A stretch of 64,000 nt of DNA, from NCBI GenBank assembly GCA_965246885.1, contig CBDFFV010000001.1, positions 1 to 64,000 of the forward strand, in the 5' to 3' direction. The position numbers were made by a program, and so were the translations under genes. This DNA comes from Abditibacterium sp. Its GTDB lineage: Bacteria > Armatimonadota > Abditibacteriia > Abditibacteriales > Abditibacteriaceae. This document shows positions 8,742 through 44,077 of this stretch, in pieces; the stretch's first letter is position 1; each line of letters starts with the position of its first letter. Under the pieces are notes generated by a model, which was not told the origin of the DNA, ran no database searches, and was given only the letters and a program-made list of their open reading frames with translations.

Positions 8742-8867
8742 ACGTGGGCGCGTCCGAGCGCGCCCGCTTTATTTGCCCCCAATGCCCCACTTTAACGACG
8801 GTTCTTACCCCTCGAAACGCATTGGAAAAGAAGGAAGGCCCAAGAGTTGGCAAACTGTTTCCCAACG

Positions 8868-11015
8868 ATGAGATTTGTCCGTCCCGTTTTTCTGCTCGCG
8901 CTTCTTCTGGCGCCGTCGCCTTTGCGCGGGGTGTGGGGGCAAAGCGCCGCGCGCACGATGCGCTCCGAAGGTTACATCCTTGGCCCCGGCGACGTGTTGC
9001 GGATCAGCGTGGCTGGCTTTCCCGAATTCTCGCAGGAAACCCTTGCTGTTCCCCCCGATGGCAGCGCTTCGCTTGCGCGCATCGGCACTATCCGCCTGAG
9101 CGGTCGCACCCGCGCGGCGGTGCAAGAGGAAGTACGCCAACGACTCATCGCCCGCGTGCGCTTGCGCGATCCGCAAGTCACCGTCACGCTGTTGACCGTC
9201 CGGTCGGGCATCATCGGCGACGCTTCACTGAGCGGCGACGTGCCGCGCAGTGGCAACTTCCCGTTGCACGAAAACGAGCGCTTGTCCTCGCTGCTGGCCG
9301 AAGCGGGGCTAAACGACCGCTTGGACGAAAAGCGCGCCACCCTGTCGCGCGCAGGCGCTTCCTATGCCCTCGACCTGCGCGGCGCCGCGATGCACCCCGG
9401 CTCCAAGGCCGACGTTTTGTTGCGCGCGGGCGATGCCATCGCCGTGCGCACCCTCGCCCCGGCAAAAATCGTCGTTCTGGGTGATGTCGCGCGACCGGGC
9501 GTCTACGAGTTGCACCGCCAGCCCCGCCCCGAAGCGTATGAACTGGGGTTGGCGCCCCGGCTGAGCGACCTTCTTATCCGAGCAGGCGATTTGGCGTTCC
9601 CCGGAAGCGGCGCAGGCACCAGTGGCGGCGGCGCAGGCACCGGTGGCGGCGGCGCAGGCACCGGTGGCGGCGGCGCAGGCACCAGTGGCGGCGGCGCAGG
9701 CACCGGTGGCGGCGGAACGACGGGAGCGGTATCCGGGAGCGCGCCCGCCTCCCCCGGCGCGCCCGTTTCCTACGCCGCTACGCTTCAAAGGGACGGCGCG
9801 CGTTTGCCGCTGGACGTCGAAGCGGCGCGGGATGACGTCTTCGGGCCAGCGAACATCTTTTTGCACGCGGGGGACACCGTTTCCGTGCGGTTGGTGCGCC
9901 CCATCACGGTTTATCTGGACGGCGCAACGGCCAAGACCGGCTCTTTTGAATTGGCGCCGGGCGCGGGCGTGTTGCAACTGCTCGTTCTGGGTGGGCCGCT
10001 TTCCCGCGCGCCGGGCGAACTCAAGGCTTCCATCCGGCGCGGCGACACGACCATGCCGTTCGACCTCTCCGCCCTCTTGCTATCGAGCGAGTCGAGCGCC
10101 AACGTCCGTTTGCAAAACGGCGACATCGTCCAACTGCGCGAACCCGAAACCGTCAGCGTCAGGGTCGCGGGCGAAGTCGCCAAAACCGGCCCGCTCAAAG
10201 TGCGCCCCGGCGCCACCATCCTCGATGCCCTCCTCGCGGCGGGCGGCGTTTCGTCCAGCACGCCCGTCCAAAGCGCCCGCCTGAGCGTCTTGCGCCAAGA
10301 GGGAGACGGCTCGCAGCGCGTCTACGAGGCCAACGCCGCCGGGATTCTGGGGTTGACCGACGTTTCCACCAACATGGTGCTCCGCGATGGCGACATCATC
10401 AACCTCGCGCGCGGCGAAGACCAAACCGTGTTCGTCGCGGGCCAAGTCGCCACTCCCGGCACCTATCCGCTTGGAACCGGCGATAGCCTCGCGCAACTCA
10501 TCGTGCGCGCCGGAGGCGCCAAAGACGACGCGGCGCTGACAAGGGTGCGCGTGTCGCGCCGTGCCACCGATAAAACGCCTGCGACCGAAGTCACCATAGA
10601 CGCTTACGACGCCGTCAAAACGGGCGCCCCGCTCCCCTTTGCCCTCAAAGCGGGCGACACCATCTCCGTTCCCCTTAACACCAATCAAGTGCTGGCGATG
10701 CAAGCGTTCGCCAAACCCGGTTACTACGCCATTCCCGAACGCGGCCAACTGACGCTCTTCGACTTTCTCGCCAAGGCTCAGGTCGCGCCCGGAGTGCGCC
10801 GTTTGTACATCTCGCAAGCGGACGCCAATGGCAAGATTGACCCAAAGACCACGCCCGTGCGCACGATCAAGCTCGACGACATCCCGCGTGGGCGCCAACA
10901 GAACTTCGCGTTGGAACCGCGCGAGGTCATCTACGCCGAGTCGCCCAAAGGCCCCAAGACAAGCCCCTTCCAAGTCTTGTCCACGCTGGGCGCGCTCAGC
11001 TTTTTGTTTCCGTAA
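8868..11015 (+). CDS. wza: Polysaccharide export protein, Wza-like, with multiple SLBB domains
   Basis: Signal peptide, YILGPGDVLRISV Poly_export motif, repeated V.G.V..PG.Y SLBB units. Confidence 0.85.
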   Translation: MRFVRPVFLLALLLAPSPLRGVWGQSAARTMRSEGYILGPGDVLRISVAGFPEFSQETLAVPPDGSASLARIGTIRLSGRTRAAVQEEVRQRLIARVRLRDPQVTVTLLTVRSGIIGDASLSGDVPRSGNFPLHENERLSSLLAEAGLNDRLDEKRATLSRAGASYALDLRGAAMHPGSKADVLLRAGDAIAVRTLAPAKIVVLGDVARPGVYELHRQPRPEAYELGLAPRLSDLLIRAGDLAFPGSGAGTSGGGAGTGGGGAGTGGGGAGTSGGGAGTGGGGTTGAVSGSAPASPGAPVSYAATLQRDGARLPLDVEAARDDVFGPANIFLHAGDTVSVRLVRPITVYLDGATAKTGSFELAPGAGVLQLLVLGGPLSRAPGELKASIRRGDTTMPFDLSALLLSSESSANVRLQNGDIVQLREPETVSVRVAGEVAKTGPLKVRPGATILDALLAAGGVSSSTPVQSARLSVLRQEGDGSQRVYEANAAGILGLTDVSTNMVLRDGDIINLARGEDQTVFVAGQVATPGTYPLGTGDSLAQLIVRAGGAKDDAALTRVRVSRRATDKTPATEVTIDAYDAVKTGAPLPFALKAGDTISVPLNTNQVLAMQAFAKPGYYAIPERGQLTLFDFLAKAQVAPGVRRLYISQADANGKIDPKTTPVRTIKLDDIPRGRQQNFALEPREVIYAESPKGPKTSPFQVLSTLGALSFLFP
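9609..9713 (+). repeat. Coding 21-bp tandem repeat x5 (GAGTSGG/GAGTGGG Gly-rich linker in Wza)
   Basis: GGCGCAGGCACC(A/G)GTGGCGGC x5. Confidence 0.9.
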
Positions 11016-11030
11016 CCGCTCTTTCCATTC

Positions 11031-13220
11031 ATGTCGCCTTCATCTTCATCCAATAACTCCCCCCGCTCCAAAGGGGCGCCCGACGGTGGCGCGTCCGAAA
11101 ATGGCGCACGCCAAGCGCTCGCGCTCTTTGAAGGCGAGCCGCGCGAGGAGGAAGCGGCGACGCAAAACGGCAAGGGCGGAGCGCTCGAAGTGGCCGACGA
11201 CGCGGCCATCCGCGACTTTTACGCGCAACTGGTCACGCTTCTCACCCAAGAGAACGCGCCGCCCCCACCCAAGCCCAGTTCGCGCGGTTCGCTGCGCTTT
11301 GCCCTCAAGCGGCGCTGGCTGCCCGCGCTTGTGCTCGCGGCGCTCACGTTTTTGGGGCTGAATCACCTGTTGCGGCCCAAGCACATCAACTACACGGCTT
11401 CGGCGCAACTGCTGCTCCCGCCGCGTCCGGTGGTGGGCGCTGCCGATCCGCTCGCCCCGCCCGAAGCCAACTACGACACCGCCGCGCAGGTCGCGCTCAT
11501 CGGGTCGGAAGAGATCACCCAAAAAGCGATGACGCGCGTGCCCGCCGACCTGCGCCAAGCCGGGTGGGGCACGAGAGAGGTTTTCCCGCCCGATGTGCAA
11601 GTGGCGTCCGCCTCATCCGACAGCAACAGCAGCCTAATCGAAATCTCCGTTCCTTCGGGCGACCCCGACGCCTCACAGTTATTGGCGACCGAACTCATCA
11701 ACGCTTACACGCAGTTCAATCGGCAACGCGGCGCGGAAACGCGCGACGAGAACCTACGGCGTGCGAAGTCGCGCGTCACGCAAGTGTCGGCGGCGCTCGA
11801 ACGGGCGCGCCTTGACCGCGCCAATCTGAAAATTCGCTCCGGCGTGGGCGATGCTGGCATGGCCCAAGGCAGCGCGGCGGCCAACATCCAGCAACTGCAA
11901 AACTCTCTCGATGATGCACGCCGAAGCGCCGCCAGCGCGGGCACTTCCGACAGCACTCTCGCCACGCTCCGCAACCAATTGCAAACCACCCAAATCGCCT
12001 TGCAAACCGTGTTGCGCGATTTCTTCCCCGACTCCGACCGCGCCCGCGCCGCCCAAGCAGACGTAGACCGCGCTCAACAGGCCGTCACCGCCCGCGAAGC
12101 CGAACTGAGGAGCAACGCCGCATCACAAATCGCCCTTCTCGAAGCCTCGTTGCGCGCCGCGCGCGCCGACGCCCAGCGCCTGCCCGAAGTCGAGCGCGAG
12201 CAAAGCCGTCTCAATGACCGCATTGCCAATTTAGAGGGCGCCTTGACCGCCGCCACCGCCCGCGAAAACCAACTCGTCCAATTGCGCGACGTTATCGCAC
12301 AACCTGCCAAGGTCATCCGCTCGCCCGAAGTCGGCTCCAACCAAGGCGTTCAAAAACTCCGCGCCCTGTTCGCGGCATTGTTGGGCGCGCTCGTGGTGGG
12401 ATTGGTCGGGGCGATACTATTCGACCGGCTCGACAAGAGCGTGCGGGCCACGCCCGACCCCGAAACCTTGTGGAATGCGCCCGTTGTGGGCGCTTTGCCC
12501 AAAGGCACCGACGACGACACGCTGTTTCGTGCCACGCCCGACAAAAGCCGCGCCGGAGCCGGGGCGCGCACCCAAAACATCGAGGCGTGCTTTACCGCGC
12601 AGAGCAACATCCTCGCCCTTGCGGCGCAAGCCGGGGCGCGCTCCATCCTCTTTTCCAGCGCCCTGCCGGACGAAGGCAAAGCCGCCAGCGCCGCCAATCT
12701 CGCCGTCGCGATGGCGTACGGCGGACGCGAAACCCTCCTCATTGACGCCGACTTCCTCAACCCCACGCAGCATAAAAACTTCTTGTTGCCCCTCTCGCCC
12801 GGTTACGCGCACGTTCTGCGCGACCAGATGCCCTTGTCCGAAGCGATTCGCCCCACGAGCGTGGCGAACCTGTACGTGCTCACCCCCGGACTCGAAGCGG
12901 GGCAGGACGCAGGATTGGTGATGAGCCGTTTGGCGGGCGCGCCGCACACCAAGAACCTTGTGCTACTCAAGAAATACTTCGATGTCATCGTGATCGATGG
13001 GCCGCCGACGGACACCCTCGGCGACGCGCAACTTATCGCGCACTTGGCCGATGCCGTCGTGCTGGTGAGCGCCGAATCCACTCCGCGCGCCGAAGTGCAG
13101 CGCGCGCGCTCGATGCTGCGTTTATCGGGGGCGTTCCTGCTGGGCGTGGTCGTCAACCGCGTGCGGCGCGGCGAGGTGGCCGACTGGGACAAACACTCTG
13201 CCGCCGAAGCGGGGAAGTAA
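11031..13220 (+). CDS. Wzc-like polysaccharide co-polymerase with degenerate BY-kinase domain
   Basis: Two TM segments flanking a coiled coil; Walker A reads PDEGKAA; LLIDAD and VIVIDGPP present; no C-terminal Tyr cluster. Confidence 0.8.
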   Translation: MSPSSSSNNSPRSKGAPDGGASENGARQALALFEGEPREEEAATQNGKGGALEVADDAAIRDFYAQLVTLLTQENAPPPPKPSSRGSLRFALKRRWLPALVLAALTFLGLNHLLRPKHINYTASAQLLLPPRPVVGAADPLAPPEANYDTAAQVALIGSEEITQKAMTRVPADLRQAGWGTREVFPPDVQVASASSDSNSSLIEISVPSGDPDASQLLATELINAYTQFNRQRGAETRDENLRRAKSRVTQVSAALERARLDRANLKIRSGVGDAGMAQGSAAANIQQLQNSLDDARRSAASAGTSDSTLATLRNQLQTTQIALQTVLRDFFPDSDRARAAQADVDRAQQAVTAREAELRSNAASQIALLEASLRAARADAQRLPEVEREQSRLNDRIANLEGALTAATARENQLVQLRDVIAQPAKVIRSPEVGSNQGVQKLRALFAALLGALVVGLVGAILFDRLDKSVRATPDPETLWNAPVVGALPKGTDDDTLFRATPDKSRAGAGARTQNIEACFTAQSNILALAAQAGARSILFSSALPDEGKAASAANLAVAMAYGGRETLLIDADFLNPTQHKNFLLPLSPGYAHVLRDQMPLSEAIRPTSVANLYVLTPGLEAGQDAGLVMSRLAGAPHTKNLVLLKKYFDVIVIDGPPTDTLGDAQLIAHLADAVVLVSAESTPRAEVQRARSMLRLSGAFLLGVVVNRVRRGEVADWDKHSAAEAGK

Positions 13221-13223
13221 GGT

Positions 13224-13306
13224 GCTCACCGTGTGGCGGCTCACCGTGTGGCGGCTCACCGAGTGGCGGCTCACCGAGTGGCGGCTCACCGTGTGGCGGC
13301 TCACCG
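13224..13306. repeat. 15-bp tandem repeat GCTCACCG(T/A)GTGGCG, 5.5 copies, between convergent genes
   Basis: Units at 13224, 13239, 13254, 13269, 13284 and a partial at 13299 that contains the ABC transporter stop codon. Confidence 0.9.
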
Positions 13307-15211
13307 ATACGACTGCGCTTGCGTTTCAAACAGGTTGGCGTAAAGGCCGCCTTGGGCGAGCAGTTCCTCGTGCGTGCCGCGCGCGACCAAAACGCCTTTA
13401 TCGAGGACGCAGATCGAGTCGGCCAAGCGCACCGTCGAGAGGCGGTGCGAGATGAGTAGGGCGGCGCGGCCTTGCACCAATTCGCGGAACGACTCAAACA
13501 GTTCGGCTTCGGCGCGCGGATCGAGGGCGCTGGATGGCTCGTCCAAGATCAGCAGTTGCGACGGGCGTAAAAAGGCGCGCGCGAGGGCGATTTTCTGCCA
13601 CTGTCCGATGGAAAGCTCCTCGCCACCCGCGAAGTCGCGGCCCAACAAAGTATCCAACCCTTCGGGCAAGCGGTCGGCAATACGATTGACGCCCGCGCGA
13701 TACGCTGCTTCTTCGACTTGGCGGCGCGTGAGGGGTGACATTAGTTCGCGCCCTTCGGGAGAAACAACGTCGCTGTCTCTGGGGTGCGTGGCGGGCAAGC
13801 GCAGGTCGCCCAGCCAGATGTTCTCGGCGAGGGTGAGGGAATAGTGGTTGTAGTCTTGGAAAACCGCCGAAATGCCGCGCCGCCACTCGACGGGGTCGCA
13901 GTCGCGCGCGTCCACCCCATCGAGCGCGATGCGCCCGGCATCGGGGTCATACAAACGGCAGAGCAGCTTGACGAGGGTGGTTTTGCCCGACCCGTTCTCG
14001 CCCACAAGCGCCACCACTTCGCCCGGAGCAACCGAGAAAGAGATGTCTTTCAGGGCTTGGCGCTCGGAGTTGGGATAGCCAAAAGAGAGGTTCTCGACCG
14101 TCAAGCCGCTCTTCCAGCGCGTGGGCAACGCCTTGGGAACGGCGGGCGCGACGAGCTTGGGTTGCAAGTCGAGGAACTGATACAACAGAGACAAAAACGT
14201 GGTGTCCTCGTGAAGCGACAAGATGGAGCCGAGGGTGCCTTGCATCGAGCCTTGCGCGCGTTGCACCGCTCCGAAATACATCACCAAGGCGCCCAGCGAG
14301 AGGGTGCCCGCGAAGGTTTTCGAGGCGATATACGCGAGGAGCGCGAAGGTGGGCGCGACGACGAACAGTTGCACGCTCCCGTCGGCCAGCATGCGCCGCC
14401 GCGCCACGCGCAAACGTCCGCTTGATAGCCACGCGCGCATGGCGTCGAAGCGGGCGCTGAAAAAGGGCGCCATGTCGAACAAGCGCACTTCCTTGGCGAA
14501 GGGTTCGAGCGTCAGCAGGTAGTTGAAGTACCCCGCGCGGCGCTCGATGGGCGTGCTTTTCATCGTCCATTCCCAAAGAATGGACACAAAGCGCAAACGC
14601 ACGAACAAGCCCGGCAGCACCGACAAGAACAGCACGAACGGCACAATGGGATGGAGCGTGAACAGCAAGGCGCCGATGGCGGCGAGCGAAAAGAGGTTTT
14701 GCCCCAAGCTGGTCAGCCCGTTCACGATGCGCGTCGGGCGAAAGGGCGCTTCTTCTTGGGCGCGATGGAGGGAGTTGAAGAACTCGGCGTTCTCGAAATA
14801 CTCCAAATCCATGCGCGCCGCCTGTTTTTGCACGAGCGCGCTCATGCGCCGCGACACGACCAGCCCTTGCCCCTCGCTTACGAACGACGAAGCCGTCGAA
14901 CACAAAGAGGAAAGAAGCGCGACGCCGCCCGCGAGCGCGATGAGTTCGAGGGAAACGTGCCATGCCGCTTCGCGCGCGGCACCGGGCAGGAGCGTCGCCC
15001 CGTGCGTAACCGCGTCCACGATGCGCCCCAGCAACCACAACGAGGCGAGCGGCAAGATGGCGCCCGCCGCCACCAAAAGCAGCGACGCCGCCATCCACCC
15101 CGGCCCGCTTGACCAAACCAATTGGATGGCGCGTCCCAATAGTGCCAGAGAGCGCACGCGGCTCCAGATGCGGTGTTTCACAAAAAGAAGTAGTGTGGTC
15201 GAAGCACGCAA
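13301..15211 (-). CDS. ABC exporter (fused TMD-NBD), lasso peptide cluster D protein
   Basis: N-terminal TM domain; Walker A GENGSGKTT, signature LSIGQWQK, Walker B LILDEPSS; abuts the kinase gene; start uncertain. Confidence 0.9.
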   Translation of the reverse strand: MRASTTLLLFVKHRIWSRVRSLALLGRAIQLVWSSGPGWMAASLLLVAAGAILPLASLWLLGRIVDAVTHGATLLPGAAREAAWHVSLELIALAGGVALLSSLCSTASSFVSEGQGLVVSRRMSALVQKQAARMDLEYFENAEFFNSLHRAQEEAPFRPTRIVNGLTSLGQNLFSLAAIGALLFTLHPIVPFVLFLSVLPGLFVRLRFVSILWEWTMKSTPIERRAGYFNYLLTLEPFAKEVRLFDMAPFFSARFDAMRAWLSSGRLRVARRRMLADGSVQLFVVAPTFALLAYIASKTFAGTLSLGALVMYFGAVQRAQGSMQGTLGSILSLHEDTTFLSLLYQFLDLQPKLVAPAVPKALPTRWKSGLTVENLSFGYPNSERQALKDISFSVAPGEVVALVGENGSGKTTLVKLLCRLYDPDAGRIALDGVDARDCDPVEWRRGISAVFQDYNHYSLTLAENIWLGDLRLPATHPRDSDVVSPEGRELMSPLTRRQVEEAAYRAGVNRIADRLPEGLDTLLGRDFAGGEELSIGQWQKIALARAFLRPSQLLILDEPSSALDPRAEAELFESFRELVQGRAALLISHRLSTVRLADSICVLDKGVLVARGTHEELLAQGGLYANLFETQAQSYR

Positions 15212-16207
15212 TTAGCCCCGCGTTTCGCGCACCAGCCGCGTCACGGTTTCGATGGTTTGCGGCAACAGCGCGAGGTCGCGGCGGCGCGACAGTTCCCAGA
15301 CATGGCAGTGAGCGGCTAAGGCTGCGCACGCGCGAAAGTGCGCCACGCGCCGCGCGCCAGTCAAATACAAGTCACTCCAGCGCGCAGCGAAAGTATGGGG
15401 GAGCAACTGCCCCAGCGCTTCTCCCGGCGACAGCGCGCGGGCATCTATGTCGGGACGCGCGGGGTCATCGTGCGAAGCCAACAGGAAAACGTGTCGCAAC
15501 GGGCGGGCGGCGCTCGCAAGCGGGGCCATGAAGTACTGCTTGTCTACTAACCCCATGCCGTCCAGTTCGGGCGCCACGCGCGGGAGGGTGTCGGGCGCCG
15601 CCCCAACGACAGCGCGCACCGCGTCCGGCACCAATTTCATCGAACCAAATCCCACGCGCGCGAGCGGCGCTCCCAACGGCGCGTCGGACGCGAAGTCAAG
15701 GGCCAGCACATCGTCGCAAAACAAGGGATAACCCGCAAGCGAAAACGCGGCGCCAAGGGTGGATTTGCCTTGCCCCTTGTCGGCGGCAAAAGCGCAGGCA
15801 ACGGGTTGGCCATCGGCGTCAGTCATTTCAACGGCGCCCGCATGGAGCGCCAACCAACCGCGCGCTTCGAGCAAAAGGGCCAAAACGCTGCCAAGAAGGG
15901 GCACGCGCCACGTCGAAGCGGATGTGCCTTCAAGCGGCTCAACCAAAACGCGCGCGTCGCCCTCGATTTCAAAGCGGCCCACTTGGGCAAAAAGCAGGGA
16001 AGAAGAGTTCTCGGAAAAGCTCAAAACGTTCTCGATGGGGGCGTCGGGCGCGTTTCGTGCTTCAACTTCGGCGAGTGGTAAAGTCCTGCCCACTTCAATC
16101 GAAACGTCAGCGCCCCCACTCGCATCGAACGCGGGCAAATCGGGCAAGGCGAACTGCGATTGGAAGCGCAGGCCGTAAGCGAAGCGGCGGTCAAGCGGCG
16201 GGGTCAT
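15212..16207 (-). CDS. HPr kinase-like lasso peptide kinase (PadeK/ThcoK type)
   Basis: AYGLRFQS N-terminus, LALHAGAVE, GQGKSTL P-loop and CDDVL motifs; directly downstream of lasso precursors. Confidence 0.8.
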   Translation of the reverse strand: MTPPLDRRFAYGLRFQSQFALPDLPAFDASGGADVSIEVGRTLPLAEVEARNAPDAPIENVLSFSENSSSLLFAQVGRFEIEGDARVLVEPLEGTSASTWRVPLLGSVLALLLEARGWLALHAGAVEMTDADGQPVACAFAADKGQGKSTLGAAFSLAGYPLFCDDVLALDFASDAPLGAPLARVGFGSMKLVPDAVRAVVGAAPDTLPRVAPELDGMGLVDKQYFMAPLASAARPLRHVFLLASHDDPARPDIDARALSPGEALGQLLPHTFAARWSDLYLTGARRVAHFRACAALAAHCHVWELSRRRDLALLPQTIETVTRLVRETRG

Positions 16208-16221
16208 GGTGGGGTAGGGCA

Positions 16222-16254
16222 CAAAAACAAAAAAGGCCCGCAATGGAGCCTTTT
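16222..16254 (-). terminator. Rho-independent terminator after lasso precursor genes
   Basis: Minus strand AAAAGGCTC-CATTGC-GGGCCTTTTTTGTTTTT: GC hairpin followed by a U-tract. Confidence 0.7.
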
Positions 16255-16365
16255 GAGTTTTGTTTGCTGCGTATCAGGAAGATTGTGCGGCCAAAGCGCC
16301 CTTGTCCGGGCCGGAGTCAGCGATTCGTGGATTGCAGGTCGGTCGTTCTTTGAACGTGGTGTCTC

Positions 16366-16509
16366 TTACGAGAGGCTCGTATTAATGAGGCTCACGCTGG
16401 AGCCAGCGATCAAAGTGCGGTCGAGTTTGCTTCCGTGAGAGTTCTGCTGGGTGATTTGCGCAACGGTGCCATGAACGGTCAGTTGCGGGGTTTGGTAGGA
16501 TTTTTTCAT
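16366..16509 (-). CDS. Lasso peptide precursor A2 (47 aa): [47 protein letters not shown]
   Basis: Hand-translated and absent from the ORF track; YxxPxL leader motif, Thr at -2, Asp9, C-terminal Ser. Confidence 0.9.
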
Positions 16510-16595
16510 CTGTTGGCACTTTGAAGTGGGAAGTGGGTAGAGATGATCCGATCCTTTGCTTGTCCCCTTAGCACCTTGGGAGGCGCCGTCTCAAG

Positions 16596-16733
16596 TTACG
16601 AGAACAAGAGGTTCTTTTTGGGAGTGTTCACGGGGAAGGAACGGTCGAGGTTGTCGCCGTCTTTGTTCCCTTGGGTGATTTGCGCAACGGCGCCGTGAAC
16701 GGTCAGTTGCGGGGTCTGGTAGGATTTTTTCAT
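16596..16733 (-). CDS. Lasso peptide precursor A1 (45 aa): [45 protein letters not shown]
   Basis: Hand-translated; strong SD AGGAGGTG 7 nt upstream; YxxPxL leader, Thr at -2, Gly1, Asp9, C-terminal Ser. Confidence 0.93.
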   Translation of the reverse strand: MKKSYQTPQLTVHGAVAQITQGNKDGDNLDRSFPVNTPKKNLLFS

Positions 16734-16826
16734 GTGTTGTCACCTCCTGTTTAAGTGGAATAGGGTTTGTCCAGCTAACCTCGGCCCGGACAAAAGCACC
16801 TAAGCACGTCTCATCTTCCTCTCCAA

Positions 16827-16856
16827 AGCATAGCATACGGTTTGGACGCGGTGCAA
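16827..16856 (-). promoter_or_regulatory. Putative sigma70 promoter for lasso precursors
   Basis: TTGCAC-18 bp-TATGCT with a TGn extended -10 on the minus strand, about 95 bp upstream of A1. Confidence 0.5.
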
Positions 16857-16897
16857 GCACAATTTTTCTTTTAACAGTTAAAGTTATCTACGGGCGC

Positions 16898-18943
16898 TCA
16901 AATTCCTCTTACCTGTTCCGTTTGTGTAAACGCCATGTTTCCTGAACTCCCCTTTTCGACGCCTTGCAGCCACGCGCCAAGGGCCAGTACTCGCCACAGA
17001 GCAAATGCGACGCGCGTGACATGACCGCCGGAGGGCGGCAGAATTTTTAATTCTTCCCACAAGCGGTGCACGGCAGCGACGTCGAGCCACTCAGCCAGCG
17101 CGCCCGGTTCTTCCAGCCATGTTTCAATGCGTGCGGCTTCAACCGCGCGCAGCCCATGAATCATTTGCGGCGCGAAGTTCGTTTTCGCGGCCCGCCATTG
17201 CACTCCCGGAGGTAGTAGCCCTTGCATCGCGCGGCGCATGACCCAGCGATTCCAGCCGTCGCGCAGTTTTTGATCGGACGGCAGGCTTAGACACAGTTCC
17301 ACCATCTCCTGCTCCCAAAACGGAACGCGCACTTCAAGCGCGTGCGCGCCCGCCTGAGAATCTATCGCTTCGAGGGCAACCGCTTGCATGGCAGTCCCCA
17401 ACATTTCGGCGTGGTGGGCGCGCACGATTGGACTAGCGGGAGGAGAAGAAATGGCCGGCAGCAAAGCGCGTTTGTCGGCGCGCACCAGTTCTCGCACCAA
17501 TGCGGCGCTTTCTTCGTCTTCCGACGCGGAACCGGAGCGCGCGCGAGGAAAAGGCATGGCCTCGATGCCGCGTGAAAACAGGCGCAGAAAACGTCCGAGG
17601 AAGCGGGTGCCGCGCGCGCGTTGCATGAGCGGCCCCCACCACAACGGCCAGATGGATTGATTGGTGATGCCAGCGCGCCGCAGGGCGCGCAGTTCGTGGC
17701 GCGCCGCCCCGAAACGACGCTGAAAGGCCAATTCCGCCACCCGCTCGTAACCCAAAAAGACCACTTCGTCGCCGCCGTGCCCATCCAACACGACCTTCAC
17801 GCCCGCTTCTTGAAGCGGTGGGTATTGCACCCACGTCGAGCAGGTGTTGGGGCCAAGGGGGGGGCCATCGAGGTGCCACACGACGCGCTCGATGTCGTGC
17901 AAGGCGCCAATGTCGTCGCCCCAAACCCACTCGCGCCGGAGCTTGTCGCCCGCCAAGGCGAGGTTTTGCTCGATCCAAGGGCGCTCGTCGCATTCGGCGA
18001 AGCGGGCAAAGACCGTCGAAAGCGCCAAAAGAGGCACTTTGTCGGGCGGGGCTTGGCGGATCGCCACCGCCGCCACGGACGACGAGTCCAACCCGCCCGA
18101 CAAAAACGTGGCCAGTTCGCCCGCGCTCCGGCTGCGCTCGGCGACGCTGCGCTCAAAGGCCGCTTTCACCCTTTGGGCGTAATCATCATCATGCGGAAGT
18201 TCCAATTCGCGGCTCGCGTCGAGGCTGAAATACTGCCCTTGGCGCGGTGAGGCGGACGGGTGGGCATCGAGTGCAAGCGAAAGGGTGCGCGCGGGTGCCA
18301 AGCGCTCGACGCCCTCATAAAAAGTGCGTGTGAAAGAAGTAATTTCCCCCGCGAGATATGCGCCGATTTGAACCTCGTCGGGGCAGGGCGGGAAGGGCAG
18401 GGCGGGCCACAGCGCCTTGATTTCGTTGGCGAAAGCGAACACGACGCCCGGCACGAAAGCGAAGTAAAAAGGTCGCACGCCGAAGCGGTCGCGCGCGCAG
18501 AAAAGGGTCTGATTCTTTTCGTCCCACACGGCGAAAGCGAAGTCACCCTTTAAATGGAAGGGCGCTTCTTCGCGCCACAAGGAATACGCTTCGAGCGCCA
18601 AGCGTCCGTCGCTCCACGCCCGCGCTTTCGTTGTATCAAGTCCAAGCTCGAACGCCAACGCTTCCCGTCCGTCCAAGCGCACGTCACCGACCAACCGCAA
18701 CCACTCGCCGCCATCGGCGCTTGGAAGAGAAAGGGCGGCGGCGCCCCCAGCGCATTCCCACTGCGCTTGCGGGGTGGCGTTGAGCGGAGCGGAACCTAAC
18801 GCGACGGCGCCGCGTGCGTCCGTCCAGCGCGCGTTCCATCCGGCAACGTCTACCCGATGGCGCAGACGCTCCAGCATAGTGGCGGCGACCGCGTCAGAAG
18901 CCTCGCTGCCGTCCAAGCGGACGTATCCGACAAAAGCGCTCAT
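16898..18943 (-). CDS. Lasso peptide cyclase (C protein, asparagine synthetase-like)
   Basis: No N-terminal Cys (MSAFVG); ARDRFGVRP, LSGGLDSS, LDGHGGDE and RVPFW motifs; ATGA-coupled to B2. Confidence 0.9.
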   Translation of the reverse strand: MSAFVGYVRLDGSEASDAVAATMLERLRHRVDVAGWNARWTDARGAVALGSAPLNATPQAQWECAGGAAALSLPSADGGEWLRLVGDVRLDGREALAFELGLDTTKARAWSDGRLALEAYSLWREEAPFHLKGDFAFAVWDEKNQTLFCARDRFGVRPFYFAFVPGVVFAFANEIKALWPALPFPPCPDEVQIGAYLAGEITSFTRTFYEGVERLAPARTLSLALDAHPSASPRQGQYFSLDASRELELPHDDDYAQRVKAAFERSVAERSRSAGELATFLSGGLDSSSVAAVAIRQAPPDKVPLLALSTVFARFAECDERPWIEQNLALAGDKLRREWVWGDDIGALHDIERVVWHLDGPPLGPNTCSTWVQYPPLQEAGVKVVLDGHGGDEVVFLGYERVAELAFQRRFGAARHELRALRRAGITNQSIWPLWWGPLMQRARGTRFLGRFLRLFSRGIEAMPFPRARSGSASEDEESAALVRELVRADKRALLPAISSPPASPIVRAHHAEMLGTAMQAVALEAIDSQAGAHALEVRVPFWEQEMVELCLSLPSDQKLRDGWNRWVMRRAMQGLLPPGVQWRAAKTNFAPQMIHGLRAVEAARIETWLEEPGALAEWLDVAAVHRLWEELKILPPSGGHVTRVAFALWRVLALGAWLQGVEKGSSGNMAFTQTEQVRGI

Positions 18944-19416
18944 GACGTTGCGCCACCGGGAGAGGGCGGCGCAAGAGTAGCCGATGCCCCTTTGGGCGCG
19001 ACCGTCAAGAGCGGTTTCCACCTCTCAATCGGCCCCCCGATGATGACCCGACCCTTCCACTCGATCCATGCGTGCGCTTCAAACGGTTTGCGTTTGTTCG
19101 CGGTGGCGTCCACTCCCAGCACCAGCGCACACACCTCGCCCTCGCGGGCCAATACTGTTTGCAGCGTGAGAGCTTGGGTGAGACACGAGGCGCGGGGAAC
19201 AAAACGTGCCGCCCGCCTGACCGCATGGGCGCGCCGCCACACTTCAAAGGGCACCAATTCCGCCACCTGACTGGCCCGCGCCGCGTCGAGCAGGCGCGAC
19301 GCGTCCTCTTCCCACTGTTTGGAGCAGGAGGTGATGGGGCTGCGCCACAGCGCCCACCGCACGCGGGCGACGAGCGGCAAGTAGCGAAACGTCAAAGCCA
19401 AATCTTGCGAGGCCAT
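18940..19416 (-). CDS. Lasso peptide leader peptidase B2 (transglutaminase-like)
   Basis: ASCLTQAL catalytic Cys and FEAHAWIE His motif; start MASQDL at 19416. Confidence 0.9.
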   Translation of the reverse strand: MASQDLALTFRYLPLVARVRWALWRSPITSCSKQWEEDASRLLDAARASQVAELVPFEVWRRAHAVRRAARFVPRASCLTQALTLQTVLAREGEVCALVLGVDATANKRKPFEAHAWIEWKGRVIIGGPIERWKPLLTVAPKGASATLAPPSPGGATS

Positions 19417-19457
19417 AGTTTTGGAACAGGAAGACCGGGGGAAAAGGGCGCTCCGGC

Positions 19458-19745
19458 TTATTCGCACACTTCGATGAGTCCGCGTTCGAGCAGTTGACCC
19501 AGCAAGGCCAACACGTCGTTTTGGCACTGCGTGGCTTCGACGTCGTATTCGTCCAGTAGCTGCGAGGTGATCTCTTGGATTTCGCGCGGGCTTTGGATGA
19601 GTTCCCAGATGCGCGCTCCGACGGGATCGAGGCCGTAGTAGATGCCGTTTTGCAAATCTAAGATAGCCGCTTCGCCTGCGAGGTCGCACGAGACCTGCTC
19701 GCTGGCGGCTTTAACTTGGGTTGTGGGCAGGAGAGTGTGTGTCAT
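19458..19745 (-). CDS. Lasso peptide RRE protein B1 (PqqD family)
   Basis: QVSCDLAGEAAILDLQNGIYYGLDPVGARIWELI..EYDV is a classic lasso PqqD/RRE sequence. Confidence 0.92.
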   Translation of the reverse strand: MTHTLLPTTQVKAASEQVSCDLAGEAAILDLQNGIYYGLDPVGARIWELIQSPREIQEITSQLLDEYDVEATQCQNDVLALLGQLLERGLIEVCE

Positions 19746-19769: not shown

Positions 19770-21272
19770 TTATTCGGCGTCAGTGTCGCGCGCGGCGCTT
19801 CCATTGAGGTATTGACCGTTGCGCGCCACGATTTGAAGCGCGGGCAGGGGAGCCGGTTCACCAGTGGCGGGGGCCGCATCGTGAATTTGGGTGAGACCTC
19901 CTCCGCCGTCGAGAGGCACACTGGGCTTCGATTGTTCGGAGCGTTCGCTGATGGCGGGCAAGTCGGGTGTGACCAACCGGGTGGGTGCTTCGACCGACAC
20001 GATGTCGGAGGGCGCACTCGGCTCGCGTTCGCCGATGACAGTTTTACCGTCCGGGGCCAAAATGTGACGGCGGCGGTCGAACCACGCGAAGCGTCCGGCT
20101 TTGACGACGGCGCGGCGGCGGTCGCCCTCGCGCGGGTGGCCTGCTGGATTGCGGCGGCGATCGCCGGTTTCGTCGCGGCGGTCGCCGGGGCTGGTGGTAG
20201 CAATGACGTGCTGGATTTTGGCGCGGAAACTGGGGGTATCGAAGCGCATGGCGTTTTCGCGGATGACTTCGGGGTTCCATTCATGGGCGTAAGCGCGCTC
20301 GACCGCTTCGCATAGCGCTTCAGTGGTTTGCGGGCGGAACAGGATGCCGCTTTTGCCCTCGACTTGCACGTCCAAGGCGCCGCCTGCGGCAAACGCCACG
20401 ACCGGCACGCCCGCCGCGTTCGCTTCGACGGGCGCGATGCCAAAGTCTTCCTCACCGGGCATCAGATACATCTTCGCGCGGGCAATAAGGCCGGGCAGGT
20501 CGGCGTCGGACACGTAACCCAGAAACTCAATCGTCGGCCCGGCAATGGCTTTGAGAGCGTCCAACTGGCGCCCGGTGCCAATCACTTTCAGGGGTTGGCC
20601 TAATTTTGTGAACGCGCGCACCGCCAAATCTACGCGCTTATATGGCACCAAGCGCGAAGCGACGATGCCGTAGTCCCCGACCTCACTGCGCGGGGCGAGT
20701 TGGAATCGTTCGGTGTCCACCGGCGGGTGCACGACTTCGGCTTCGCGGCGGTAGAACTTGCGGATGCGGCGCGCGACGGCGCTGGAGTTGGCGATATACC
20801 TGTCCACGCGCATAGCGGCGATGGCATCCCACGTGCGCAAATAGTGCAGCCCCGGCGCAAGCATCGAGCGAATAGGGGAGGAGATGCGTTCTTTCTCGAC
20901 GTAAGAGGTCGTCGCCCAAGCGTAGCGCATCGGCGAGTGCGTGTAGCAAATGTGGGTGGTGTGCGGCTGGGTAATGACACCCTTGGAAAACGCCGACGAG
21001 CTTGACAGTACGAGGTCGTAACTGCTCAAATCGAACGATTCAAAAGCGGTCGGGTAAAGCAAAAGCGCCGCACGGTGCGTCATCCGCTTGGCGGGCAAAC
21101 GCTGCAAAAACGAGGTGCGAATATCCCAAGAGCGATACGTAGACGGCATCGCGTCGGGGTCATACGCCGACGTGAAGACGGGCGCTTCCGGGAAAAGGTC
21201 GTGGAACACCTCGACCACCTTTTCGGCGCCCCCCATTTGCATCAAAAAATCGTGGACAATTGCAACTCGCAT
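19770..21272 (-). CDS. GT4 glycosyltransferase (WbaZ-like mannosyltransferase) with Arg-rich C-terminal extension
   Basis: MRVAIVHDFLMQMGGAEKV, YTHSPMRYAW and EEDFGIAPVEA motifs; about 140 aa extra tail; 24 bp upstream of B1. Confidence 0.88.
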   Translation of the reverse strand: MRVAIVHDFLMQMGGAEKVVEVFHDLFPEAPVFTSAYDPDAMPSTYRSWDIRTSFLQRLPAKRMTHRAALLLYPTAFESFDLSSYDLVLSSSSAFSKGVITQPHTTHICYTHSPMRYAWATTSYVEKERISSPIRSMLAPGLHYLRTWDAIAAMRVDRYIANSSAVARRIRKFYRREAEVVHPPVDTERFQLAPRSEVGDYGIVASRLVPYKRVDLAVRAFTKLGQPLKVIGTGRQLDALKAIAGPTIEFLGYVSDADLPGLIARAKMYLMPGEEDFGIAPVEANAAGVPVVAFAAGGALDVQVEGKSGILFRPQTTEALCEAVERAYAHEWNPEVIRENAMRFDTPSFRAKIQHVIATTSPGDRRDETGDRRRNPAGHPREGDRRRAVVKAGRFAWFDRRRHILAPDGKTVIGEREPSAPSDIVSVEAPTRLVTPDLPAISERSEQSKPSVPLDGGGGLTQIHDAAPATGEPAPLPALQIVARNGQYLNGSAARDTDAE

Positions 21273-21786: not shown

Positions 21787-23076
21787 TTAAGCGGTAAGCT
21801 TGGCGGCGAGTCGGTCGGGGAAGCGCTCTTTGACTTCGCGGCGGCGCCCGCGCGTTATCTCCCCGCGCGCTCCTGCCGTGCCGGGGTTGTCACGCAAGAA
21901 GGGCGCGAGTCCCTCCCGCACGCGCTCCTCGATGGCTGTTTGCTCGTCGGGCGCAAGCTCGGCGAAGACGGCATCCAGCGCCTGATTCTGCTCCTCCTCG
22001 TCCTCGAAATCTAAGGGTAAAAGCGCGCGCGGCCCGAAATCGGGCAACAAGATTTGTCGAAGCGAACCGGGAGGGGGCGTTAATGGGCCGTTGACGGCCA
22101 TTCCCGGCGCTTGTGGCGCTTCCGGGCCATGATGTGCCAAAACGGGAGAAAGCGGGCTTCCAAAGCGAAATGTGGCGAGCGGCTCGCCATCTTTGGCCGC
22201 CTCGATTTCCATGCTTTCGAGATACCCGCGCGAGATGAGTTCCTCGACGGCGGGCGCCAGTTTTTCGCGGATTTTCGAGGGGTATTTGTAGGGCGACATT
22301 CCCAATCGGTCGCGCAACTTCCACAAACCGAGGGTGATGATCTTGCGCGGCGGCTTGTCCGCGTGACGCAGTAACTCCAGCAGGCGAAACAAGCGCCGCG
22401 AGGTCGGCGAGTCGAGCGAGATGGCGAAATCGAGCGCGAGCGAGCGCACGTTGCCCGCGTGAAAAGAGGTGTGGAGTACCTCGTCCCAATGAAACCACGA
22501 GAGCGGCAGATGCCCCTGCCCCTTGCGTCCGCGCGCTTCGGCGGAGATGGCGTAAGAACTGATAATACCAAAAGCAATGGAATCGTAGGGCGCTTTGCGG
22601 CGCGCGTCCCAAAAGGCGTGTTGCGCCGCGATGTGAACCGCGCTCAAGCGGTTGAACGCCAGCTCCAACTTTTTGTACCCGAGGTCGTTCGGGTTCCAGT
22701 CGAGCCGGGAAAGTAACTCGTAGCGGGAGAAAGTGACTTTTTGCGGCCACTCGCTTCCGGCGGCGGCTTCGCGGGTGAGTTGCAGCAAGACGAGATACAG
22801 CAACTCTTCGTTCGGCCCGGGCAACCCGTACGCCGTCGGAGTTGTGACATGCCACCGAGCGTTGACAAGCCTTCCGTCCGGCAAAGTACGCGGCGTTTCG
22901 GAAAGCAGTTCGTTTTCGCTTTGACGACCGGGTGGTTGTAAGAGCGCGAAGGGATGTCCGGCTAAATTCATCTCGTCGCGCCCGGAGTGATCGTCACCGA
23001 GCAAAACGAGCTGCGCCGAAGGCAACGGCGCAGCCGTTTTTGCCTCCGTTTGCGAAGCAAAATTGCTTTTTTTCAT
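21787..23076 (-). CDS. repA: Plasmid replication initiator protein (RepA/RPA family)
   Basis: GRDEMNLAGHPFALL N-terminal motif of RPA-type initiators, winged-helix-like core, adjacent iteron array; start 23076 (alternative 23121). Confidence 0.8.
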   Translation of the reverse strand: MKKSNFASQTEAKTAAPLPSAQLVLLGDDHSGRDEMNLAGHPFALLQPPGRQSENELLSETPRTLPDGRLVNARWHVTTPTAYGLPGPNEELLYLVLLQLTREAAAGSEWPQKVTFSRYELLSRLDWNPNDLGYKKLELAFNRLSAVHIAAQHAFWDARRKAPYDSIAFGIISSYAISAEARGRKGQGHLPLSWFHWDEVLHTSFHAGNVRSLALDFAISLDSPTSRRLFRLLELLRHADKPPRKIITLGLWKLRDRLGMSPYKYPSKIREKLAPAVEELISRGYLESMEIEAAKDGEPLATFRFGSPLSPVLAHHGPEAPQAPGMAVNGPLTPPPGSLRQILLPDFGPRALLPLDFEDEEEQNQALDAVFAELAPDEQTAIEERVREGLAPFLRDNPGTAGARGEITRGRRREVKERFPDRLAAKLTA

Positions 23077-23156
23077 AAATTTTTTTCCAATAAGGATTTT
23101 CTTTCTACTTTCTATGTGCAAAGTATGGCTTTATAAAGCCCACGCAAGGCGATCAT

Positions 23157-23485
23157 TTCCCCAACAAGGCGTGTTTCCTTCCCCAACAAGGCGTGTTTAA
23201 CCGTCCCCAATTTCCCCAACAAGGCGTGTTTCTTTTCCCCAACAAGGCGTGTTTCTTTTCGACCTCTTCCCCAACAAGGCGTGTTTCCCGATTTTAAACA
23301 CGCCTTGTTGGGGAAATCCGCGCAAATCCACGCTCAAATGCCTATGGATAACTTGGGGATAACTTTTTAAACACGCCTTGTTGGGGAAGGATTTATCGAC
23401 TCCTGAAACCTCTTCCCCAACAAGGCGTGTTTAAAATCGCGTGACTGCGCCCGAAATGCCTAAAGAAACACGCCTTGTTGGGGAA
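23157..23485. repeat. Iteron array / replication origin: nine exact copies of TTCCCCAACAAGGCGTGTTT
   Basis: Forward copies at 23157, 23179, 23212, 23235, 23267, 23413; reverse copies at 23296, 23369, 23466; immediately upstream of repA. Confidence 0.9.
23343..23362 (-). promoter_or_regulatory. Two DnaA-box-like sites within the origin
   Basis: TATGGATAA (23343) and TGGGGATAA (23354), each one mismatch from TGTGGATAA. Confidence 0.55.
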
Positions 23486-23689
23486 ATCCACGCTCAAAGG
23501 ATAACTTCGGACAGTTCCAAACCCAGTTCGGTGAGGAAGTCACTGGCGCGAGCCGATTTTCCCCTTTCATCGGGATTTGTAACAGATTGTATGGAGTATT
23601 AAGAAAAAGAAAACGCGACGAAAAGAGCCTGCCATCGCCGCCAAACGCCCGCTTATAGCCGCCGAAAAGCGGGTTATGAAAGGGATAAA

Positions 23690-25024
23690 TTACAGTTTTA
23701 CTATACGAGAATGTGGCTGCTCCGCGACTGATTTGAAGGCGTTGCGGGTGTCCACGATGAGGCGCGCCTGCGACGCTATGGCGGGTAAATCGTAGAGGCG
23801 GTGGTCGGTAAGCATCACCACGCAGTCGGCTTCCAGCACCTTTTCTACCGGTTGCGACTCCATCGGATGTTCGCCAATGCGCACACTTGGAACGTGCGGA
23901 TCGTTATAAACTAAGCGCGCGCCGCGCGCCAGAAGCAACTCCGCCACGCGCAGCGACGGGGATTCCCGACAATCGCCGATGTTGGGCTTATAGCTCATGC
24001 CGAGCAGCCCAATGGACGAGTTTTTGACGGCTTTGGCGTCGTCGTTGAGCGCGCGCGTGACCAGTTCCACCACATGATGCGGCATGGCGCGGTTGATTTC
24101 GCCCGCCAACTCGATGAAATGCGTTTGAAAATCGTGCTGGCGCGCCTTCCACGACAGATAAAACGGGTCAATCGGGATGCAATGCCCGCCCAAACCCGGC
24201 CCCGGCAGAAAGCGCGTGAAGCCGTACGGCTTGGTCGAAGCGGCGTCTATCACTTCCCACACGTCTATCTCCATGCGGTCGCACAGCAGCGCCAACTCGT
24301 TCACAAGCGCGATGTTGACCGAGCGAAAAATGTTCTCCAACAGCTTGGTTAGCTCGGCGGCTTGCGTCGAACTGACCGGAACGGTGCGCTCGACGATACA
24401 ATCATACAGCGCGCTCGCCGCCGCCAGACACGCGGGGGTGTGGCCGCCCACCACTTTGGGGACTTTTTGAATCGGAAATGCGGCGTTGCCCGGATCAATG
24501 CGTTCGGGCGAAAAGGCGAGAAAGAAGTCCGTCCCCGCGCGCAGTCCGCCCGCTTCGAGCAGGGGGCGCACCACTTCATCGGTCGTGCCGGGGTAGGTCG
24601 TGCTTTCCAAAATCACCAGTTGTCCGGCGCGAAGCAAGGCCGCTACCGACGCCGCCGCGCTTTCGACCGCCCGCAAATCGGGGTCGCGCGCTTCGGTGAG
24701 GGGCGTAGGAACGCAGATGATGGCCGCGTCGCACTCGCGGAGCCGCCCGAAATCAGTCGTCGCCTCGAAGCGTCCCGACGCCCGCAACTGCCCCACGCGC
24801 TCCGCCGCGATGTCGCCGATGTGCGACTTTCCTGTATTGAGCGCCGCAATAGTTGCGGCGTTGAGGTCGAAACCAGTGGTCTTAAACCCCGCTTCGCCAA
24901 ACGCCACGACCAGCGGCAGGCCGACGTAACCCAACCCCAACACGCCGACGGTGAGCGCGCGGTCATCGATTTTCTTCTGGAAAGCGGTGGCGGACATCTG
25001 GCTTGCAGGGGCGTGGGGAATCAT
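23690..25024 (-). CDS. Nucleotide-sugar dehydrogenase (UDP-GlcNAc 6-dehydrogenase WbpA/TviB/WecC family)
   Basis: GLGYVGLP, ICVPTP, ESTTYPGTT, FSPERIDPG and GGHCIPIDP motifs; start 25024 or 24997. Confidence 0.9.
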   Translation of the reverse strand: MIPHAPASQMSATAFQKKIDDRALTVGVLGLGYVGLPLVVAFGEAGFKTTGFDLNAATIAALNTGKSHIGDIAAERVGQLRASGRFEATTDFGRLRECDAAIICVPTPLTEARDPDLRAVESAAASVAALLRAGQLVILESTTYPGTTDEVVRPLLEAGGLRAGTDFFLAFSPERIDPGNAAFPIQKVPKVVGGHTPACLAAASALYDCIVERTVPVSSTQAAELTKLLENIFRSVNIALVNELALLCDRMEIDVWEVIDAASTKPYGFTRFLPGPGLGGHCIPIDPFYLSWKARQHDFQTHFIELAGEINRAMPHHVVELVTRALNDDAKAVKNSSIGLLGMSYKPNIGDCRESPSLRVAELLLARGARLVYNDPHVPSVRIGEHPMESQPVEKVLEADCVVMLTDHRLYDLPAIASQARLIVDTRNAFKSVAEQPHSRIVKL

Positions 25025-25083
25025 AGCGAGAAATAGCGCGGGCGACTCAATGACAGGAGCGCGCCATTCAGTGACAAAGGCGT

Positions 25084-25134
25084 GGAAATGGCCGCCAGAC
25101 ATGCGGGAATGGCTGCCAGACAAGTGGGAATGGC
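25084..25134. repeat. Degenerate 21-bp tandem repeat, about 2.4 copies
   Basis: GGAAATGGCCGCCAGACATGC / GGGAATGGCTGCCAGACAAGT / GGGAATGGC. Confidence 0.65.
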
Positions 25135-25173
25135 CCACCGAGGCGCGTCAGCCAGTGGCGCGCCTCGGTCTTT

Positions 25174-32116: not shown

Positions 32117-32222
32117 AAGCGACTAAAGTCGCAGCCCGCAGGGTCGTCGGCCTTCGCCGACGGGGTGCCAGTTCACCTTCGGCAAAGGCCGACGACCCTG
32201 CGGGCTGCGACTTTAGTCGCTT
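32117..32222. repeat. Long inverted repeat (REP/REPIN-like), 38-bp perfect arms
   Basis: AAGCGACTAAAGTCGCAGCCCGCAGGGTCGTCGGCCTT at 32117-32154 with its reverse complement at 32185-32222; each arm has an internal GCGACTAAAGTCGC palindrome. Confidence 0.85.
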
Positions 32223-43981: not shown

Positions 43982-44077
43982 ACCGACGCGCGCCGATGAA
44001 TGACGCACGCGCGGGAATCAATGGCGCGCATGGCGGAATCGTTGGCGCGCGTGCGTCATTCATCGGCGCGGGTCGGT
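43982..44077. repeat. Intergenic inverted repeat, 31-bp arms (1 mismatch)
   Basis: ACCGACGCGCGCCGATGAATGACGCACGCGC at 43982-44012; reverse complement at 44047-44077. Confidence 0.85.

Follow-up and report, generated by a model that had tools for sequence, protein, structure and literature searches.

In rRNA operons, processing stems bracket the 16S rRNA. Pairing between distant parts of one transcript has also been described for bacterial mRNAs. The S. aureus yabJ-spoVG operon carries a 46-nt duplex between the 5' UTR and the intercistronic region, which is processed by RNase III and leaves the downstream gene repressed; the preprint, of September 2026, claims to be the first to report mRNA-mRNA regulation in cis inside an operon (10.64898/2026.09.18.752551). 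In S. aureus icaR, the 5' and 3' UTRs pair into a substrate of RNase III, and a 7-nt motif pairs with the Shine-Dalgarno sequence and blocks translation (PMC3868564). The RNase III substrates of B. subtilis are reported to include long-range ones with up to 505 nt between the sites (PMC11780869). For microcin C, it is reported that an excess of precursor is needed and that it is gained by the mccA terminator (PMC6495379).

The locus analysed here is a lasso peptide cluster in a window of 64,000 nucleotides, by which we mean the whole stretch of DNA under study. A sequence-only reading of this window had proposed that a duplex joining the 5' UTR to the 3' UTR encloses both lasso precursor genes. 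Folding, comparison with relatives and profile searches led us to conclude, with high confidence, that an RNA helix is under selection at the lasso precursor locus. The genes it surrounds are genuine precursor genes by their profile matches, and the selection is indicated by covariation. Genomes are designated by G numbers, G000 being the genome that contains the window.

Genomic Setting and Precursor Genes

The genes on the minus strand follow the order glycosyltransferase, B1, B2, cyclase, A1, A2, terminator, HprK-related kinase and ABC transporter (Table 1). Precursor, RRE, peptidase, cyclase, kinase and transporter genes are all together in this lasso cluster, the kinase match being weak. 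We take the layout to be paeninodin-like and the kinase, presumably, to act on the peptide as in paeninodin-type clusters. The kinase reading frame begins ∼15 nt past the U tract of the terminator and has no Shine-Dalgarno sequence. The cluster lies amid genes for polysaccharide export and synthesis (7428-13220, 19770-21272 and 23690-25138), and the upstream glycosyltransferase adjoins B1 in all six of the relatives' clusters examined.

The window is part of contig C2 of G000, a 72-kb contig that lacks tRNA genes, carries iteron-like repeats beside a RepA-like gene and looks like a plasmid; in G012 the same lasso cluster is carried on a 7.4-Mb contig. REP-like palindromes of 100-190 nt are abundant in contig C1 of G000 and also present in the window at 32117-32222 and 43982-44077. 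ARAGORN made two "tRNA-Stop (tta)" calls, and the one at C1 1435707 coincides in part with a palindrome of this kind, which makes it a probable false positive. In sequencing run X2, one contig stops at 16317, within the 3' arm, where depth falls from ∼200 to ∼25, and the next contig listed has 26 unplaced letters ahead of 16408; the break at 16317-16408 may come from strains that vary in the A2 core or from the assembly.

Table 1. Features of the lasso precursor locus and its surroundings (positions in the window).
Feature	Position	Strand	Basis and remarks
ABC transporter	13301..15211	-	PF00005, weak PF00664
HprK-related kinase	15212..16207	-	weak TIGR04352, E 3e-6, far under cut-off; no Pfam match
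intrinsic terminator hairpin and U tract	16222..16254	-	scan; similar hairpin in four closest relatives
3' arm	16296..16321	-	3' of second precursor gene, ∼40 nt ahead of terminator
predicted RNase III cut, 3' arm	16304..16305	-	2-nt 3' overhang; best shared register
lasso precursor A2, 47 aa	16366..16509	-	NF033528 41.8 bits
lasso precursor A1, 45 aa	16596..16733	-	NF033528 40.8 bits, cut-off 33
Shine-Dalgarno sequence of A1	16742..16748	-	strong; outside helix; GGAGGTG invariant in alignment A3
alternative local hairpin over most of 5' arm	16766..16794	-	9 bp; -12.0 kcal/mol for 40-nt window
5' arm	16774..16799	-	5' UTR of first precursor gene; fold, duplex, alignment
predicted RNase III cut, 5' arm	16788..16789	-	best shared register, E. 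coli pair-count matrix
predicted sigma-70-type promoter	16827..16856	-	-35 at 16856-16851, 18 nt, extended -10 at 16832-16827
lasso cyclase C	16898..19021 (likely start 18940)	-	PF00733; NF033535 455 bits, below cut-off 525
leader peptidase B2	18940..19689 (longest ORF; true start probably later)	-	PF13471; NF033537 over cut-off
RRE protein B1 (PqqD family)	19458..19745	-	PF05402; NF033536 79.6 bits, cut-off 80
RepA-like gene and about nine iteron-like repeats, both orientations	21787-23121 and 23155-23493

The lasso ring of A1 is predicted from known lasso rules to join Gly1 and Asp9, with a C-terminal Ser. Over 102 nt, the DNA of A2 is 84% identical to the A1 leader region. The second precursor seems tuned down, with no GGAG ahead of the A2 start codon (window 16510-16530), an ATT start in G012 and an ATA start in G010; the counter-case is G003, where it has an ATG and a full Shine-Dalgarno sequence. 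In G012 and G010 the helix described below excludes this second precursor, and its ATT or ATA start is consistent with tuning down. The A1 core (window 16596-16670) is closer to the cores of G014 and G223 (loci L093, L101 and L107) than to those of the first precursors in the four nearest relatives, which suggests that precursor genes may be exchanged inside a fixed clamp. Elsewhere in G000, weak matches to the lasso leader (E 0.001 or worse) were found at C1 2931260-2931316 and 1485196-1485258, possibly orphan precursors.

The promoter proposed by the sequence-only reading was missed by a consensus scan but is kept in all five of the closest genomes examined, with a TTG-type hexamer, 18 nt and TGn plus TAYKCT. 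The start site was assumed near 16820. The terminator proposed with it was recovered by the scan at 16254-16231.

Pairing of the Two Arms in the Window

The arms are as first described: minus-strand 16799-16774 pairs with 16321-16296 at 25 of 26 positions, with 20 Watson-Crick pairs, five G-U pairs and one A-C. The duplex energy was -46.3 kcal/mol on the mRNA strand versus -34.1 on the opposite strand. When the suggested folding check was run on the 611-nt region, the arm helix was contained in both the MFE and the centroid structure; the transcript had a z of -5.99, and none of 20 shuffles was equally stable. Outward from the 5' arm, weaker pairing continues to ∼16805 and toward the presumed start site. 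A local hairpin of some kind is computed to cover the 5' arm in all five closest genomes (-7.0 to -17.4 kcal/mol, with differing partners) and is weak in G014; we read it as a putative folding intermediate. A search of Rfam 15 over 15800-17300 gave no match at the gathering score and two chance-level matches, neither on the arms.

The wobble pairs had been taken as a sign of selection on RNA structure. The count of five in six mismatches was correct. Every one of the six DNA-level mismatches between the arms is a transition and gives a G-U pair on a single strand; for the sixth (A-C) that strand is the opposite one. At P=0.11 the wobble count is by itself no demonstration of RNA-level selection. 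Furthermore, G000 is rich in long inverted repeats, with 221 strand-specific long-range matches at a score of at least 36, of which 28 have a near-unique core. Since such repeats are common, the duplex is unexceptional within this one genome and the evidence has to come from relatives.

Conservation and Covariation of the Helix

A cyclase search of 61 genomes gave an orthologue at E <= 4.5e-99 in seven, G000 included. Gene order is the same in all seven orthologous clusters, the precursors are oriented as the cyclase in each of them, and the arm pair is present in all seven. The arm core is nearly letter-for-letter the same in G003, G012 and G002, and in G010 the helix is weakened (-29.0; z -4.0). 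The helices of G004 and G014 (another genus) seemed unrelated at first; their scores of 71 and 61 compare with null maxima of 26 and 27.

MAFFT aligned all eight units across both arms, the 5' arm without internal gaps. In this alignment (A3), built without structure information, a 27-pair helix has 91.1% of its cells paired, and 15 of the 27 pairs show two-sided compensatory change. Its covariation is 0.57, against 0.26 in shuffled alignments. These values were reached by none of 500 shuffles, a count that overstates significance because the sequences represent about three lineages. Slid registers gave at most 49% paired cells and a covariation of at most 0.17, and RNAalifold predicted the same helix unprompted. 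The covariation check across homologous loci that the earlier reading called for thus upholds the duplex. Where five genomes have a G-C-rich core, G004 and G014 have A-U pairs instead. Counted as distinct types, G-U exceeds A-C by 15 to 7 over all units and by 12 to 4 without G010 (P=0.038), and one U-G pair is retained in seven of the eight units. The sense duplex is more stable than the antisense duplex in four of five genomes, the exception being G003 (antisense -64.7 versus sense -59.3). We conclude that the arms form a conserved RNA helix of 25-45 bp that brackets the lasso precursor cistron or cistrons, as shown computationally. To judge from these comparisons the helix is a real and covarying RNA element with a putative function.

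These data also bear on an origin at the DNA level, in which the arms would mark sites of inversion, serve as paired operators or be left over from a mobile element. The richness of the genome in palindromes, the plasmid-like contig and the variable gene content between the arms speak for such an origin. The arms occur once per genome, and they are neither multi-copy nor fixed-sequence repeats of the MITE or REP kind. The core has been replaced pair by pair across lineages with pairing retained, unlike a protein site or a transposon end, and both the U-G pair and the constant orientation of the precursors argue in the same direction. We therefore regard a DNA-level repeat as the least probable of the explanations, with hardly any weight. 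The contigs of two sequencing runs from one study, possibly the window's own source, listed no joint that changes strand.

Extent and Distribution of the Helix

The sequence-only reading described the precursor mRNA as clamped end to end. Both precursors are enclosed in the window, but this does not hold throughout. The 3' arm of G003, G012 and G010 falls between the two precursor genes, ∼255 nt ahead of the terminator, and only the first gene is enclosed; G002 has its single precursor enclosed. In G004, precursors 2 and 3 are each preceded by a 5' arm, and the two would compete for a single 3' arm (-68 and -75 kcal/mol); G014 has two tandem copies, each with its own helix. The placing of the helix around precursor genes only, with the Shine-Dalgarno sequence left outside its pairs, is shown computationally. 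The first precursor of G004 is the one without a clamp, and a perfect inverted repeat of ∼39 bp was seen by eye upstream of it (L006:3810-3905). The third precursor of G014 (L074 near 1506) has a weak possible duplex (z -3.7) and four cysteines or an otherwise atypical core.

An ungapped duplex test missed G010 (score 24, null maximum 26), and a gapped test with self-folding subtracted and eight shuffles per test was therefore added. In each of the seven clusters one unit or more reached z <= -4.0, G010 being borderline at -4.0. Applied 38 times to 27 further lasso-type loci, most of them from the phylum and order of the cyanobacterium G061 and outside the lasso classes of Bacillota, Pseudomonadota and Actinomycetota, the same test found no duplex, with no value better than z -2.9; this set left out L110, which has no precursor ORF by pattern, and the duplicates L102, L104-L106, L108 and L132. 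Apparent duplexes at L095 and L099 were repeated self-complementary hairpins that disappeared once self-folding was subtracted. A 5'-UTR profile (R1) run on 31 genomes of the class detected no further strong copy: its nine strong matches were the training sequences, and the next best had an E of 0.0016. A 16-nt 5'-arm pattern with one mismatch, searched in 31 genomes, occurred as often as its reversed control save at the lasso loci. The exact 19-nt motif of the 3' arm had 13 matches in metagenome contigs, none near lasso genes and none with a partner arm, which were taken as chance. The plasmid collection held no cyclase match at E 1e-60. Given the negative results at the other loci and with the profile, the element is thus tied to this lasso cluster in this family, among the genomes searched.

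A Putative RNase III Stem

Among the roles first suggested for the duplex, a stabilising stem and an RNase III processing site are still the best readings, and control as in type I toxin mRNAs is not supported. We favour, tentatively and at a little short of an even chance, a stem at which RNase III would excise a 484-nt precursor message sealed by ∼14 bp and uncoupled from the neighbouring genes. During transcription the 5' arm would be parked in its local hairpin and later captured by the 3' arm. RNase III would then cut the helix near its middle, at 16789|16788 and 16305|16304. The inner product, of 484 nt in the window and 255-294 nt in relatives, would be closed by ∼14 bp, its 5' end paired and its 3' end overhanging by 2 nt. 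Paired ends with a short overhang resist exonucleases. Such ends would offer little grip to RNase J, to the 5' sensor of RNase E/G or to 3' exonucleases. The pieces outside, namely read-through from B1-B2-C, the second precursor in three genomes and read-through into the kinase and transporter, would be cut loose and decay separately. The enclosed precursor would thereby exceed both the enzymes and the excluded precursor.

An RNase III substrate requires a helix of at least ∼22 bp; the window has 25 of 26 positions paired, and the 27-column helix is 91% paired in the eight units. The host encodes RNase III (PF14622 over cut-off, with the signature motif in the translation) as well as RNase E/G, J and Y. 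Cleavage registers were scored with the pair counts of 85 E. coli sites as given in Table S4 of PMC6212723, using an assumed sum of log10 frequencies, for a host that is not E. coli. The best register falls on the same column in five of the eight units and on average. Four pairs of A3 are invariant, and three of them, G-C, U-A and U-A, fall on the matrix positions J', D' and C', where each is the commonest pair. Joint column shuffles gave P values for the shared register of 0.002 with all eight units, 0.004 without G010 and 0.050 with one unit per lineage; shuffles that moved only well-paired columns gave 0.035, 0.013 and 0.006, respectively.

The scores themselves ranged from -19.4 to -24.9 in seven of the eight units, against -22.1 for the genome's own 16S stem. 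Under the assumed formula, the paper's cut-off of -25.5 is cleared by 75% of 155 other helices formed by long-range inverted repeats of the genome, and -22.2 by 25%. The score is thus weak in absolute terms, as any good helix scores well. In the window's own unit a register three pairs away is slightly better (-21.7 versus -22.2 at the shared register), and shuffles within single units were significant at 0.05 in only three of eight. Five genomes have an inner half-site rich in G-C, an unfavourable composition for E. coli RNase III at position D. The duplex that would end the inner product has -23 to -40 kcal/mol and a pair probability near 1 in seven of the eight units (-29 in the window); the inner product of G010 is predicted not to stay closed.

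The G-C-rich half-site would also suit a helix that is left uncut and protects the message, with RNase III in a minor role. The helix would bury the 5' end, or both ends if the terminator is close, and keep the transcript closed up, so that only fully transcribed messages are long-lived. In G003, G012, G010 and unit 1 of G014 pairing runs on, by different sequences, as far as the presumed start site or close to it, an outer extension that counts against excision in that it fits plain 5'-end protection equally. The B. subtilis hbs mRNA offers a parallel, since its 14-bp pairing of 5' and 3' UTRs hinders RNase Y (PMC5737220). On the other side, a near-perfect helix of 25-45 bp is a likely RNase III substrate in a host with the enzyme, a 5' end could be protected by simpler means, a local hairpin, and the invariant pairs coincide with RNase III positions. 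An uncut helix is for these reasons a rather unlikely alternative.

Cleavage might instead lower expression, as a built-in decay signal or timer on the precursor message or chiefly as repression of the downstream gene. The same helix and register evidence applies here, and the two tested precedents, icaR and yabJ-spoVG, are both repressive; that the duplex lowers expression in these two systems also counts against excision for the benefit of the precursor. Three genomes share the yabJ-spoVG layout, in which the 5' UTR pairs with the intercistronic region. The inner product is predicted to remain closed, and a precursor with its own promoter, a near-perfect Shine-Dalgarno sequence and tandem copies points to high demand, so we consider down-regulation improbable. 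If the preferred excision does take place, it may proceed in the manner of rRNA and yield an end-sealed, pseudo-circular precursor mini-message, the position of the 3' arm picking the precursor genes that are amplified, namely the first alone in G003, G012 and G010, both in the window, one or two in G004 and each tandem copy by its own clamp in G014; we hold this extension to be possible but doubtful.

Translation and Termination

Translational control similar to that of type I toxin mRNAs had been offered as a further role. The Shine-Dalgarno sequence starts 26 nt inside the helix and is paired with neither arm, and it lies outside both arms in all eight units. Its computed opening energy before and after addition of the 3' arm was 8.5/8.5, 5.9/5.9, 7.1/8.4, 11.8/8.6 and 7.4/6.7 kcal/mol in five genomes. 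With the Shine-Dalgarno sequence outside the helix and no consistent change in its accessibility, silencing of the type I toxin kind is unsupported; the helix fails the defining test of such silencing, namely pairing that hides the Shine-Dalgarno sequence or the start. The scan gave one promoter-like site on the plus strand, at 17016, pointing away from the precursors.

An antiterminator function of the 5' arm was considered and is not supported, as the pair probability of the terminator with and without this arm (1.00/0.62, 0.16/0.81, 1.00/1.00, 1.00/1.00 and 1.00/1.00) shows no common direction. A switch in which the local 5' hairpin gives way to the long helix, with effect on translation or termination, would find a parallel in the metastable hairpins of aapA3 (10.1101/615682), given the alternative hairpin computed in all five closest genomes. 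The position of the Shine-Dalgarno sequence and the lack of a common shift in opening energy or terminator probability make such a switch very unlikely.

Significance and Comparison With Known Systems

The sequence-only reading knew of no such duplex at RiPP precursors, and our search of the literature on lasso and RiPP clusters, covering mainly open-access papers with subscription journals largely outside its scope, found no such element described. RiPP clusters have to produce precursor well in excess of enzyme, and in the literature covered the RNA device for this is a local terminator. If the proposed function is true, a long-range covarying helix around the precursor cistron would be a different solution to precursor excess, and one of few cases in which RNase III cutting raises rather than lowers an mRNA. 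On the extended reading it would act as an RNA-level selector of peptide product ratios and could serve as a portable part for higher peptide yields. The helix is a second candidate for such regulation in cis, backed by evolutionary evidence, in a phylum unrelated to that of yabJ-spoVG, and its cut sites are predicted exactly. A narrow distribution (seven genomes, one family) and the putative nature of its function limit its weight.

The stems of rRNA operons resemble the lasso helix as long helices formed from the flanks of a bulk product, and the genome's own 16S stem has a similar RNase III matrix score (-22.1). The lasso helix differs from them in enclosing an mRNA cistron rather than a structural RNA, and no sequence similarity was seen by eye. 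The type I toxin mRNAs aapA3 and hok share a small-peptide message and 5'-3' long-distance pairing, and their transient 5' hairpins would have a counterpart in the computed local hairpin, whereas their pairing sequesters the Shine-Dalgarno sequence and an antisense RNA is needed (10.1101/615682). Long-range pairing of UTRs is likewise found in B. subtilis hbs, where it modulates nuclease access; there the pairing is 14 bp, acts on cleavage by RNase Y and concerns a single gene (PMC5737220). The icaR mRNA is alike in its pairing of 5' and 3' UTRs and in giving an RNase III substrate; by the 7-nt motif that pairs with its Shine-Dalgarno sequence it differs from the lasso helix of 25-45 bp, which leaves the Shine-Dalgarno sequence outside.

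With microcin C the likeness lies in the proposed role, that of an RNA element by which a short precursor message comes to exceed the enzyme genes of a RiPP cluster. The mccA element is a local terminator controlled by the ribosome (PMC6495379), unlike the lasso helix. By layout, yabJ-spoVG is the closest precedent found. There too the 5' UTR pairs past the first gene and one cistron is enclosed, the layout seen in G003, G012 and G010; the yabJ-spoVG duplex is an RNase III substrate and uncouples the genes. In yabJ-spoVG a downstream regulator gene is repressed and the duplex overlaps a coding end. The lasso helix, by comparison, brackets RiPP precursor genes, encloses one or two of them and shows covariation across genera.
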